Positions 34,618 to 64,000 are shown, numbered from the stretch's first letter. The stretch: 64,000 nt of DNA from an uncultured Verrucomicrobiae bacterium (GCA_963706715.1 CAVPNI010000003.1:768001-832000); one strand, 5' to 3'. A program made the numbers and translations. The notes: generated from the letters alone by a model not told the origin.

Positions 34618-37600
34618 ATGCTTGAGGCTGATAAATGTAGAGTAAATTATTGCCCAGGGAGTAGCACATCAGACATCAGTGCATTGAAGGAAACTAATAG
34701 CGATAAGTTTCACAAAGATCCGCCGTCATTTCCGGTCTCAGCAGCGCAACGCGAGATGTGGCTGGCTCAAAAATTGTTTCCCGAGCGCTCCTTTTCTATC
34801 GCTGAATATGCGGAAATCGATGGGCCGCTTGACATAGATACTTTCTCGAAGGCGATCACACTTACCGTGGCAAAAACCGCCGCACTACAGGCTCGATTTG
34901 CATTCATCAATGAGCAGTTGGTCCAGTCGTTTGAAATACCGGTTCATGAAGTGTTATCCGTTGTAGATTTGTGTGCATCTGAAGAAGCGCTTTCAGATGC
35001 GCATCACTGGATGCGAAAAGATCTTGCCCAGCCACGTCAACCTGAGGCGGGCGATCTTTTTATCTTTGTACTGTTTAAGCTCAGACCCGACCGTTTCATC
35101 TGGTATCAGCGCTATCAGCACATCATCATTGATGGATGTAGTCTTGCAATCATTGCCTGCCGTGTTGCCCAGATCTATGCCGCGTTGATTCATGAAGAGC
35201 CAATCCCAGAATCGGAAATGCTGGAATTTGACTTGCTAGCGCGGCACGACGCTGATTATCGAGGCTCTACACAGTTTCTTGCGGATAAGGCATTCTGGCA
35301 AGACTACCTAAACCGGGGCAATGAGCCGGCATGGCTATCCCTCCCTCCGGACCTGCGCGCCGATAGACAGAAATTGCGGGCTACGGCAAGTATTGCAGAG
35401 GAAGACATTCGTCGCTTGAAGCACATCACCCAGGCCATGGATGCACGCCAATCTCATCTCCTGATAGTAGCGCTTGGCATTCACTTTCACATCCTTACGG
35501 GTCAAACGCAGTTGAATTTCAGCCTTCCGGTTTCCAATCGGAGCAAGGATGAGATGGATACCCCAGGCATGACATCCAATGTCCTGCCATTGATCCTGCA
35601 GGTGAAGTCAAGCAGCTACCTGAGCAACATCGTCCAGGCTGTGGCCCATGAGGTCAGCCGAATTCTGCCGCACCAGCGTTATCGCATGGAAGAGATGCTG
35701 CGCGATGAGAGCATGGGACAAACTCGGTGGTTTGGGCCCACTATTAACCTGATAAAATTTGATCATGGTCCACCTTTTGCAGGGTGCCAATTGCGTTGGT
35801 TTATGCCATTAAACGACTTCGGTCGTGGATTTCACGTGACCTTCTATCAGCCTGGCAATGGTCAAGGACTGCAAGTTTTCTTCGAAGATGATACCGCTGT
35901 CCATACGTTCGCAGAATTGCAAGCCCATCAGCAGCTTTTTTTGAGCATTCTGGAAGCATTTATCCACAATCCGGATCAGACTGTGGAGGCTGTTGCAACC
36001 GGGTGTTTCGATCGATGGGGCCATGCGCTAAGCGGGAGTGTTTTTGCTCACCGTCGCAAGCCAATTGCAGCAGGTTGTCTACGATGGCGCCAACCTGCAC
36101 AGAATCTGGCTACTTTGGTTCGTGCGCTGGATTTTGGGAATTCCGCACCCAATCCGCTCGGCTTACCCAAGATTCTGCTGAAAAACCGTTTTGTTTGTGC
36201 AATGCGGTTAGAAGTTCTTAAGCAATGTTCGGGAGCTGCGCCAGGAACATTGCTGCGGATTGGACAGAATGATTGGGAGGTCGCCAGCGGCAGTGAAGAC
36301 GTCTGTATTGGACACTTTACCAGTCTCACAGGTGAAGCGCTGGATGCTAGAGAAATCGCGCAACAGGAAGGCCTCTCCGAAGGAGATTGCTTGCCAGAGA
36401 TTACGGACGATCAAGCAAACAGGCTGATGGAAACATATCAGCTCGTGCGAGATCATGAGTCCTTCTGGTCTGCGCGACTTGCTCGGTTTACTCCCCTTCA
36501 ATTTCCATTTGCGTGGAATCACAAAACATCCGAGGCGCCATCCTGGCAAATCAGTCCATGGCATTTACCCGAGGCATTCAAGCACTTTGCTCTTGAAGAA
36601 CGCTGTCAATATTTGATCAGTGTCTTGTGCGTTTATTGGGCACGTATTACAGGGGAAACCCAGTTTCAGATGGGATGGGGTCATAACCATTTAGCAAATG
36701 AGCAACCACCCAATTTCTATGCACAAACCGTTCCGATGGACGTCTCTATCGACCCAGAGGCAAATTTTGCTGAAGTCTATGAGAACATAGGAGAGGAAAT
36801 AGCTCGTTTGGAAAAACATCGAACATTTGCGATGGATCTTGTTGCGCGCCATATTGCACTGAGTGCAATAAGCAGTTTGCACATACCTCATCCTTGGAAG
36901 GTGGCCGTTGCGGTGTGGAATGGTGAAGGTGATGATACCTCCCTCGAAGCCGAAGTACACGGAGAGCTAGCCACCTTTCGAATTAATATGCGGGATGGCA
37001 GCTTCAGATGGCATTACGATGCATCGCGCGTATCAGGCAAACAGATTGATCGTATGACGGGGCATCTGCTGGAATTGACACAAACCGTGATGGCTTCAGA
37101 TGTGACCCCAGTAAAGCGGCTCAATTTACTACCTGAGTCTGAGCGGACACTACTACTACAAACGTGGAACGAGACGCAGAGGGACTATCCGGCCGATCAA
37201 TGCCTGCACCAGTTGTTTGAGCAACAGGTAGAGCGCACTCCTCATGCCATTGCTCTGGTGTATGAGGAAGAGACTCTCACCTATGCCGAACTCAATGCGC
37301 GAGCCAATCGGCTCGCCCATGAGCTTATCGAACTGGGTATCGAGCCAGACGTGCAGGTAGCCATTTGCGTTGAGCGCTCCCTGGCAATGATCGTAGGGCT
37401 GTTAGCCATCCTCAAGGCTGGTGGCGCCTATGTGCCACTGGACCCAGCCTACCCAGGTGAGCGACTGGCTCACATCCTGGCTGATGCAAATCCTCAGATC
37501 CTGTTAGCAGATGAAACAGGCCGCACTACCTTAGGCGAAGCCTTGCTCTCCCATGTTGTGCTCGATCCGAACACCCTGCCCAGCCAGCCGGAGACCAACC

Positions 37601-64000: not shown

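Follow-up and report, generated by a model that had tools for sequence, protein, structure and literature searches.

A twelve-module dual-E/C nonribosomal peptide synthetase, predicted to make a lipododecapeptide and likely acquired by horizontal transfer, in a verrucomicrobial chromosome

How did a verrucomicrobial chromosome come to carry a giant nonribosomal peptide synthetase (NRPS) of proteobacterial style, and is that synthetase still intact enough to make a peptide? In this study, we sought to answer these questions for a 41.2-kb locus that begins within a 64,000-nucleotide stretch of DNA from an uncultured Verrucomicrobiae bacterium (GCA_963706715.1 CAVPNI010000003.1, C3:768001-832000), hereafter the window, whose host genome comprises 3.04 Mb in four contigs. 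Positions are counted from the first letter of the window unless preceded by C3, which denotes the contig. Positions 34618-64000 of the window cover the first 29 kb of the locus and the remaining 11.8 kb lie beyond it. The original prediction, made from the window alone, described at least nine modules over more than 29 kb directly after ilvD, and this is true: there are 12 modules over the 41.2 kb, with ilvD 317 nucleotides upstream. We read the locus as an intact, two-gene, 12-module NRPS of the beta-/gammaproteobacterial dual epimerization/condensation (E/C) type that sits in a verrucomicrobial chromosome, was likely transferred into it, and is predicted to make an N-acylated dodecapeptide; we give this reading a probability of about 0.72.

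Modular architecture and the division into two genes

The locus encodes a modular type I NRPS, with repeated condensation-adenylation-carrier (C-A-T) modules, the core motifs of such enzymes and terminal release domains. It is encoded by two open reading frames (ORFs) that overlap by 17 nucleotides, gene A (3,608 amino acids) and gene B (10,133 amino acids), which together hold 13,741 open codons; the stop of gene B, read from the whole contig, lies at C3:843829, or 75829 in window numbering. The original prediction did not mention that there are two ORFs rather than one. Pfam recognizes Condensation, AMP-binding, AMP-binding_C and PP-binding domains recurring throughout and two thioesterase domains (TE1 and TE2) at the end. 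The domain order is a starter condensation domain (Cs), a relic of a formyltransferase C-terminal domain, a relic of a C-domain lobe and A1-T1, followed by eleven C-A-T modules and TE1-TE2. Modules 1 to 8 are complete within the window, while module 9 reaches most of its A domain. The features are as follows, in window coordinates.

32591..34300, plus strand: ilvD, the last host gene before the synthetase (Pfam ILVD_EDD_N/C)
34301..34617, no strand: intergenic spacer, 42% GC, with an element of ~100 nucleotides that is repeated many times across all four contigs (own-genome blastn)
34618..45444, plus strand: NRPS gene A, 3,608 amino acids; Cs, formyltransferase-C relic, C-lobe relic, A1-T1, E/C-A2-T2, E/C-A3-T3
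34711..36033, plus strand: starter condensation domain (Cs), QHIIIDG (Pfam Condensation at amino acids 38-458, 170 bits)
36037..36417, plus strand: relic of the C-terminal subdomain of a formylation domain (amino acids 474-600; PF02911)
36451..37155, plus strand: degenerate condensation C-terminal lobe, linker to A1 (amino acids 612-846; weak Pfam Condensation match)
37153..38910, plus strand: A1-T1, DASTIAAVCK (Tyr-like)
39058..42138, plus strand: module 2, dual E/C, A2 DLTKVGHVGK (Asp-like), T2
42280..45366, plus strand: module 3, dual E/C, A3 DFWNIGMVHK (Thr-like), T3
45423..45435, plus strand: 13-nucleotide insertion in the T3-C4 linker (alignment with three in-frame paralogous linkers)
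45428..64000, continuing to 75829, plus strand: NRPS gene B, 10,133 amino acids; modules 4-12, TE1-TE2
45440..48556, plus strand: module 4, LCL-type C (HHIVSDG), A4 DAFVFVGTFK, T4
48608..51724, plus strand: module 5, LCL-type C, A5 DAFVFVGTFK, T5
51872..54958, plus strand: module 6, dual E/C, A6 DFWNIGMVHK (Thr-like), T6
55106..58162, plus strand: module 7, dual E/C, A7 DATKVAEVGK (Asn-like), T7
58310..61360, plus strand: module 8, dual E/C, A8 DLYNHALTYK (Ala-like), T8
61508..64000, plus strand: module 9, cut by the window end, dual E/C, A9 DLTKVGHVGK (Asp-like)
Beyond the window: T9; module 10, LCL, DAFVFVGTFK; module 11, LCL, DAWTIAAVCK (Phe-like); module 12, E/C, DITKVGEVGK (Asn-like); TE1, TE2

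A motif map found the A3 motif TSGSTGTPK, the A8 motif and the carrier serine motif LGGHSL in all 12 modules, the catalytic His in all 12 C domains, and the two thioesterase GxSxG serines at Ser 9659 (TE1) and Ser 9946 (TE2) of protein B. Dual E/C domains are described as bearing HH[I/L]xxxxGD near the N-terminus besides the HHxxxD active-site motif (PMC10510592). Each of the seven candidates here (modules 2, 3, 6, 7, 8, 9 and 12) has HHLLAxxGD together with HHLIxDH; the C domains of modules 4, 5, 10 and 11 have HHIVSDG without the first E/C motif and are of the ordinary, LCL type, and HHLLAxxGD is also lacking from the Cs. The seven candidates are 27% identical to the LCL domains of the same synthetase and 52-76% identical to those with the E/C motif in named Syp, Pso, Photorhabdus and Mycoavidus proteins, and their best NCBIfam model is SolG (658 bits, below its whole-protein cut-off). 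By motif and by their grouping with known E/C domains, the seven are predicted to be dual E/C domains; the original description of a dual-E/C, lipopeptide-type NRPS thereby gains support, the Cs being nearest to lipoinitiation domains (see below).

The module copies are related in a patterned way. Module scaffolds, comprising the late part of one A domain, T, C and the early part of the next A domain, share 86-97% nucleotide identity and the A cores differ; a 5.5-kb block that begins at the end of A3, crosses the gene boundary and reaches into A5 shares 96.9% identity with one in gene B that begins at the end of A9 and reaches into A11. In six paralogous module pairs compared by the Nei-Gojobori method, the synonymous divergence (dS) was 0.02-0.42 and the ratio of nonsynonymous to synonymous divergence (dN/dS) was 0.155-0.229 in all six, which indicates that the copies diverged under purifying selection, though not necessarily in the present host. 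The concertedly evolving NRPS and polyketide synthase lines described by Medema et al. 2014 (PMC4256081) are likewise alike in a conserved scaffold and differ in the A cores that bear specificity; from that description there is no difference of principle, except that here the duplicated block crosses a gene boundary.

The boundary between the two genes lies in the T3-C4 linker. Compared with the T4-C5, T9-C10 and T10-C11 linkers, it carries insertions of 3 nucleotides (45397-45399) and 13 nucleotides (45423-45435), with the linker otherwise conserved on both sides. The 13-nucleotide insertion carries the ATG of gene B (45428), and gene A is shifted onto a TAA (45442-45444) 14 nucleotides later, such that the arrangement of three plus nine modules on two proteins appears to be secondary, arising from the insertion that supplies gene B's start. 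Between module copies this net 16-nucleotide insertion (45397-45435) is an out-of-frame indel. It had been claimed that such indels are in frame and that the gene is maintained; the first part fails for this one, which splits the gene, while the second is upheld by dN/dS values of 0.16-0.23.

The same insertion raises the possibility that the acquired line is already broken, with modules 1-3 cut off from modules 4-12 by the frameshift, the dodecapeptide not produced and the genes decaying. The insertion is derived with respect to the three in-frame paralogous linkers. It removes the covalent link between T3 and C4, no Shine-Dalgarno-like sequence stands ahead of gene B's ATG, and, since only eight codons separate that ATG from the first conserved C-domain motif, no recognizable docking domains remain at the split; the line could therefore yield little, or synthesis could end at the third residue. 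The genome is, in addition, full of mobile repeats. Yet 10,133 codons remain open downstream of the insertion with all motifs intact, the insertion itself provides an in-frame ATG whose 17-nucleotide overlap with gene A is compatible with translational coupling, and the low dN/dS between copies speaks for constraint, although that selection may predate the insertion. We consider a broken line unlikely. If the line is intact, as we favor, ribosomes would translate gene B by reinitiation, and its product would have to work with that of gene A without recognizable docking domains.

Loading module, specificity codes and predicted peptide

If the line works, how would it begin? Some 390 extra residues lie between the first C domain (amino acids 38-458) and A1. 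Residues 486-583 match PF02911 (Formyl_trans_C) at 28.5 bits against a cut-off of 21.1, and the relic as a whole (amino acids 474-600) shows 44% identity to the stretch after Formyl_trans_N in an NRPS of the formylation-adenylation (F-A) type, the match extending to residues 209-650 of that protein. Formyl_trans_C was the only part that Pfam detected; the catalytic Formyl_trans_N is absent from the loading module, and the gap of 16 residues between the end of Cs (458) and the start of the relic (474) is too small for it. By its domains, this would not be a formylation-domain loading module, whether LgrA-like or F-A. The following stretch (amino acids 612-846) matches positions 193-455 of the Pfam Condensation profile at 16 bits, below the cut-off (28-43 bits in relatives), and is 28% identical to the C-terminal part of an internal C domain.

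An HMMER search of 1.84 billion cluster representatives with this region returned 751 proteins at E <= 1e-10. Among the best 150 of these, the match starts at residues 141-250 in ~114 and at residues 444-506 in 13, of which 12 look Cs-type and one (P0391) is F-type behind a thioesterase. When 12 of the proteins were sampled with Pfam, Formyl_trans_N lay upstream in six of the six whose match starts near residue 200, and the three sampled single-module proteins of the 444-506 kind all had an N-terminal Condensation domain and no Formyl_trans_N. We infer that a starter C domain took the place of the catalytic half of a formylation domain, which had earlier come to precede a truncated C domain, such that the loading module would preserve a history of initiation domains replaced in turn, from C to F to Cs.

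The first 900 amino acids align over 96% of their length with a protein from a Joint Genome Institute metagenome (42% identity) and, again over 96%, with 5,950-amino-acid NRPS proteins of Serratia (34% identity). The codes and domain order of the Serratia protein (Thr-Ser-Ser-X-X-TE) fit sphA, described as the synthetase of the lipopeptide stephensiolide (PMC9911388), and it is probably SphA. A scan of 185,579 species genomes, the host's own excluded, with the Cs-to-linker region gave six distant loci (25-31% identity), all in Beta- or Gammaproteobacteria. This probable SphA and other loading modules of the order Cs, formyltransferase C-terminal relic, pseudo-C and A share the same unusual layout, in SphA's case with an N-acylated peptide as product (PMC9911388); beyond the 34% identity, however, the probable SphA has five modules, one TE and other residues.

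In comparison with solved structures, the Cs is closest to the starter C domain of RzmA (7C1H/K/P, E = 1e-56), followed by the first C domain of CDA (CDA-C1, 1.6e-43) and EntF (9e-34). RzmA-Cs, the domain of 7C1H, is described as an acyl-CoA user in which a shorter residue at position 148 led to a longer acyl chain (PMC7804268); Leu176 aligns with this acyl-length gate (R148) and hints, weakly, at a short-to-medium acyl chain. A different view would be that the N-terminal C domain is non-lipidating, and either installs another acid cap (aryl, as in MxcG- or EntF-type enzymes) or is inactive, leaving a free or differently capped N-terminus. In NCBIfam the best models are MxcG (337 bits) and EntF (213 bits), neither of which reaches its cut-off, Gln stands in for the first motif His (QHxxxDG, here QHIIIDG, instead of HHxxxDG), and no acyl ligase or acyl carrier protein (ACP) gene is adjacent. 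The lipoinitiation structures nevertheless outrank EntF, the catalytic second His is kept, and the N-terminal layout recurs in the probable stephensiolide synthetase; the acyl-CoA-using RzmA and HolA, as far as PMC7804268 describes their clusters, also consist of a synthetase alone, with no neighboring ligase or ACP gene. Because the ranking of solved structures favors lipoinitiation domains, we keep aryl capping only as a minor rival, and a non-lipidating domain seems to us quite improbable. By position, nearest Cs relatives and catalytic His, the domain qualifies as a putative Cs, which would load an acyl group from acyl-CoA or acyl-ACP onto residue 1. Two Sfp/EntD-type phosphopantetheinyl transferases encoded elsewhere in the genome could activate the carriers.

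To predict the residues, the ten specificity positions were anchored on the A4/A5 region and then carried through an alignment of the 12 A domains, with A1 alignable to solved A domains including 1AMU. We take the anchor positions to follow GrsA numbering. The nine codes that had been read by hand for A1-A9 were reproduced exactly, and those of the modules beyond the window are DAFVFVGTF (A10), DAWTIAAVC (A11) and DITKVGEVG (A12). For modules 1 to 12 we assume the assignments Tyr, Asp, Thr, X, X, Thr, Asn, Ala, Asp, X, Phe and Asn-like. The A8 code is one mismatch from DLYNNALTY, which is found in proteins that NCBI names SypA, SypB and SypC and which, we presume, occupies the Ala positions in the residue order of syringopeptin, a partial check on Ala at position 8. 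The code of X (positions 4, 5 and 10), DAFVFVGTF, comes nearest to DAFWIGGTF, at three mismatches, among 1,441 A domains of hit proteins; because the A domains most similar to those that bear it (at most 68% identical) carry Ile/Val-type codes, X is probably a branched aliphatic residue.

By established NRPS logic, each dual E/C domain would epimerize the residue delivered by the preceding module, from which the D/L pattern follows and the product is predicted as acyl-D-Tyr1-D-Asp2-L-Thr3-L-X4-D-X5-D-(allo)Thr6-D-Asn7-D-Ala8-L-Asp9-L-X10-D-Phe11-L-Asn(like)12. The domain order and codes agree with the residue order and stereochemical pattern proposed earlier for positions 1-9. Release of the peptide would fall to the tandem thioesterases, which may close a lactone onto Thr3 or Thr6. 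Across 499 residues, A1 and A11 show 15 differences; only position 239 distinguishes the Tyr-like code from the Phe-like one, through a single nucleotide (TCG versus TGG), with the TCG of A1 at 37795-37797 and the A11 counterpart at C3:837779-837808.

Host chromosome and likely horizontal transfer

In which chromosome does the synthetase sit? The host assembly is estimated at 100% completeness and 1.08% contamination, with contig GC contents of 47.1-47.6%. Four other genomes carry the same genus label: two single-contig genomes of ~0.9 Mb, and two larger ones (2.5 and 1.9 Mb); IlvD of the window is 90-91% identical to that of G001 and G002 and 78% identical to that of G003 and G004. By exact look-up, GltX and AroE of G003 are proteins that NCBI lists under Candidatus Xiphinematobacter sp. 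Idaho Grape, and IlvD of G003 shares a 90% cluster with IlvD of that organism. IlvD of G002 is listed under a metagenome-assembled genome (MAG) of the Verrucomicrobia, and a member of the 90% cluster of the window's MurJ is named Verrucomicrobia; a look-up with PGK scored clusters from Elusimicrobiota, Verrucomicrobiota and Bacillota alike. With same-genus proteins named Candidatus Xiphinematobacter and Verrucomicrobia MAG, the suggestion of a host from the Planctomycetes-Verrucomicrobia-Chlamydiae (PVC) group was borne out, and a verrucomicrobial host under the same genus label as a 0.9-Mb nematode endosymbiont is supported.

The synthetase differs from this host in composition. Along the window, GC content is 0.44-0.50 from 1 to 36 kb and 0.52-0.57 from 36 kb on, which bears out the earlier remark that the cluster is more GC-rich than its flanks; genes A and B have 53.9% and 55.0% GC against 47.4% for the genome. 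At third codon positions (GC3) the values are 54.9% and 56.6% against a mean of 46.8% (standard deviation 4.7) in 1,258 frames of at least 300 amino acids, and only 2.1% of frames reach the GC3 of gene A.

Its relatives point outside the phylum. When an E/C domain was used as a query, the best match outside the host genome among 40 relatives was 31% identical, the synthetase was not found in the four same-genus genomes, and among 400 genomes drawn evenly from the phylum the best match was 35% identical, four reaching E <= 1e-40. The E/C-A-T module, by comparison, is 66-72% identical to modules of Mycoavidus, Mycetohabitans, Photorhabdus and Burkholderia gladioli, and the E/C domain alone up to 76% to its best relatives. 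Lower identities were seen in Xenorhabdus, rhizobia, Pseudomonas, a myxobacterium, early-diverging fungi and gall midges, and none of the 120 E/C-A-T module matches listed is named verrucomicrobial. We built a FastTree phylogeny of 103 domains, comprising the seven E/C domains of the locus, three from the genome's second synthetase, two LCL domains of the locus as outgroup and 91 others from 27 hit proteins picked by hand to span taxa, with at most four domains each. The seven formed a single clade (support 1.0) whose sister group was Photorhabdus/Xenorhabdus (0.876), and both fell within a larger clade that also included Mycoavidus, Mycetohabitans and fungal copies (0.926); as the proteins were hand-picked and a single domain was used, the sister group is indicative only. 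Composition, the lack of a close match in relatives, the best matches and the domain tree agree with the proteobacterial horizontal transfer proposed in the original prediction: the synthetase was likely acquired in this way, and a donor among the Beta- or Gammaproteobacteria is indicated.

The way in which the locus is embedded bears on whether it belongs to this chromosome at all. Nucleotide synteny with G001 and G002 ends at the ilvD stop (C3:802300-802301) and resumes at C3:847464. Repeats flank the synthetase, with copies 94-100% identical on all four contigs; after gene B they form a nest of 1.8 kb (C3:843830-845657). The repeat units that bracket the synthetase, of ~120 nucleotides, ~250 nucleotides and an element of ~1.1 kb, look like host repeats of the miniature inverted-repeat transposable element kind. 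A clean insertion was considered as a model and rejected, the flanks being non-adjacent in G001 and the corresponding neighbors lying at the host's own C4:509-513 kb and C3:318 kb. Because the two flanks are not neighbors in G001, the locus appears to be a breakpoint of synteny, or rearrangement, rather than a clean insertion. At the place where the synthetase sits in the host, the draft contigs of the relatives end 2.4 kb (G001:C1:1-2362) and 1.5 kb (G002:C90:1-1506) past ilvD, probably through repeat-induced fragmentation; neither genome gave a close E/C match.

These contig ends, the non-adjacent flanks and a GC jump that starts near the end of ilvD would also be expected if the synthetase were a proteobacterial contaminant joined by mis-assembly, and no public run spans the ilvD join. 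The 41 kb, however, lie inside a 970-kb contig with host genes syntenic with relatives on both sides, and the multi-copy elements at both ends recur across all four contigs in copies that are 99% identical. The genome has two more synthetase loci whose GC content is similar, the contamination estimate is 1.08%, and the nearest proteobacterial modules are only 66-76% identical. A contaminant is therefore a far-fetched explanation, and we continue to regard the synthetase as part of the verrucomicrobial chromosome. The one listed public run with a match, from a soil metagenome, contains two contigs of 151 nucleotides identical to 35121-35393, part of the starter domain.

Several observations, in addition to the lost T3-C4 link and the Gln in the Cs motif, weigh against an intact, working lipopeptide line of proteobacterial origin. 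No MbtH family match was found in the genome, and no regulator, exporter, acyl ligase or ACP gene occurs among the 33 flanking ORFs scanned. The soil metagenome run contains nothing across the join of ilvD and the NRPS, and there is no RNA run among the public runs listed for the locus. As to the product, because DAFVFVGTF, which is used three times, has no match within two mismatches among the 1,441 A domains, three of the twelve residues are without an amino-acid assignment, and the A12 code DITKVGEVG lies equally close, at one mismatch, to an Asn-type and an Asp/Asn-type code.

Known systems and neighboring genes

Does the locus correspond to a system already described? No orthologous or collinear line was found in 5.8 billion proteins or among the 185,579 species genomes. 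The compound had not been recognized from the sequence, and given the absence of such a cluster from these collections the product is most likely undescribed. Among the papers listed for nonribosomal peptides or lipopeptides of Verrucomicrobia, titles and abstracts describe no such cluster, and of those listed for Xiphinematobacter and nonribosomal synthesis none is, by title and abstract, about such a synthetase.

The closest characterized architecture that we found is that of glidonin (GdnA/GdnB) from Schlegelella brevitalea, of the Burkholderiales (PMC10587159), which we compared by its published description, such that homology of the scaffold is not implied. Shared features are a Cs start, a length of ~44 kb there, two genes, 3 + 9 canonical modules, dual C/E domains and tandem TE domains, and the glidonin dodecapeptide has D-D-L-L-D over its first five residues, as predicted here (PMC10587159). 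The glidonin line has five dual C domains versus seven here, and its module 13 (C-A*-T) adds putrescine, whereas here TE1 directly follows T12 with no thirteenth C domain; the residues, Phe/Met-Asn-Pro-Val-Phe-Pro-Trp-Val-Ala-Ala-Ser-Ala, differ from our prediction at every position, and gdnC, an ABC exporter gene, is described as essential there (PMC10587159), while no exporter gene is adjacent here. We rejected the 'FMT' of the glidonin work as a parallel to the formyl relic, since it is described as a housekeeping Met-tRNA formyltransferase acting in trans (PMC10587159). With no module 13 and another residue order, the locus is not of the glidonin type.

Pseudomonas cyclic lipopeptide synthetases, such as those of syringopeptin (SypA/B/C) and putisolvin (PsoB), offer a second comparison, and proteins named SypA/B/C and PsoB are among the E/C-A-T matches, at 49-57% identity. 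A Cs, dual E/C domains without a separate E domain and tandem TE domains are typical of these lines and common to the locus. Flanking LuxR-type regulators and efflux genes are also typical of their clusters, but neither occurs among the 33 ORFs here. The E/C domains of the locus fall outside the Pseudomonas clade (52-57% identity), in the group of Photorhabdus/Xenorhabdus and Mycoavidus/Mycetohabitans, and its loading module, unlike theirs, bears the formyltransferase-C relic. Since the flanking genes and the E/C clade differ, we do not class the locus with the Pseudomonas type despite the common layout of the synthetase.

The highest module identities are to NRPSs of the endofungal Burkholderiaceae Mycoavidus and Mycetohabitans (rhizomide RzmA, holrhizin HolA) and of Photorhabdus and Xenorhabdus. 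None of these endofungal and Photorhabdus enzymes is collinear with the locus, the best matches being 5-7-module proteins with other codes in hosts of another phylum, and the N-terminal region is matched in part (28-47% coverage in Mycetohabitans hits, 36% in Mycoavidus sp. HKI).

The locus is an intact, well-delimited candidate for a new lipododecapeptide in a phylum that is barely represented among nonribosomal peptide producers. A bolder proposal, which we hold only tentatively, is that a large-genome, repeat-rich relative of Xiphinematobacter keeps a borrowed 12-module lipopeptide line under selection, beside two other borrowed dual-E/C synthetases, and with the 12-module line would make the first known lipopeptide family of the Verrucomicrobiota. 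If so, the product would be an acidic, D-rich lipododecapeptide in which three residues, from an A code not found in related enzymes, are possibly non-proteinogenic, and the line would work despite its split by the 13-nucleotide insertion and its lack of docking domains. The compound would then act in interactions with hosts or competitors, as with its nearest relatives in nematode- and fungus-associated bacteria. The lineage itself includes a 0.9-Mb obligate nematode symbiont, and because the nearest enzymes come from nematode- and fungus-associated bacteria, a role in symbiosis or defense is worth testing. The known workings of such enzymes are unchanged by the locus. What is new here is the split by a 13-nucleotide insertion, the formylation-domain relic in the loading module and the dN/dS between paralogous modules; for enzymology, the T-C linker split without docking domains, the swaps of initiation domains and the one-nucleotide pair of Tyr-like and Phe-like A domains are natural experiments.

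The same contig holds further synthetase genes. A second dual-E/C synthetase (C3:1767-14285) has a frame of 4,173 amino acids with the order A-T-(E/C-A-T)x3-TE, no starter C domain and 54-56% GC. The E/C domains of this second synthetase share 52% identity with those of the main locus and fall with Pseudomonas and Burkholderia glumae (support 0.996), pointing to an independent acquisition. A T-TE fragment at C3:1-1599 is cut by the contig start.

The repeat nest is directly followed by an orphan gene of 554 amino acids (C3:845658-847322; 40% GC, GC3 29%) that is single in the genome, non-syntenic with the relatives and without a Pfam or NCBIfam family; it has one HExxH motif (HEFVH at 372) and sub-threshold atlas leads (0.75-0.86) to zincin-type proteins. 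Over the window, Rfam gave no match at gathering scores. Upstream of ilvD are two tandem genes of the SBF family (bile acid:sodium symporter type; 30144-31184 and 31322-32335, plus strand), which, because they fall in the stretch syntenic with G002, are host genes and not part of the island. Farther upstream, a protein of more than 1,800 amino acids with RHS repeats and DUF6531 (2-5407, minus strand), marked by a strong strand skew, runs off the window start, and beside it (5365-6804 and 8602-11474, both minus strand) are an RCC1-repeat protein, a DDE transposase and a split IS66 transposase.

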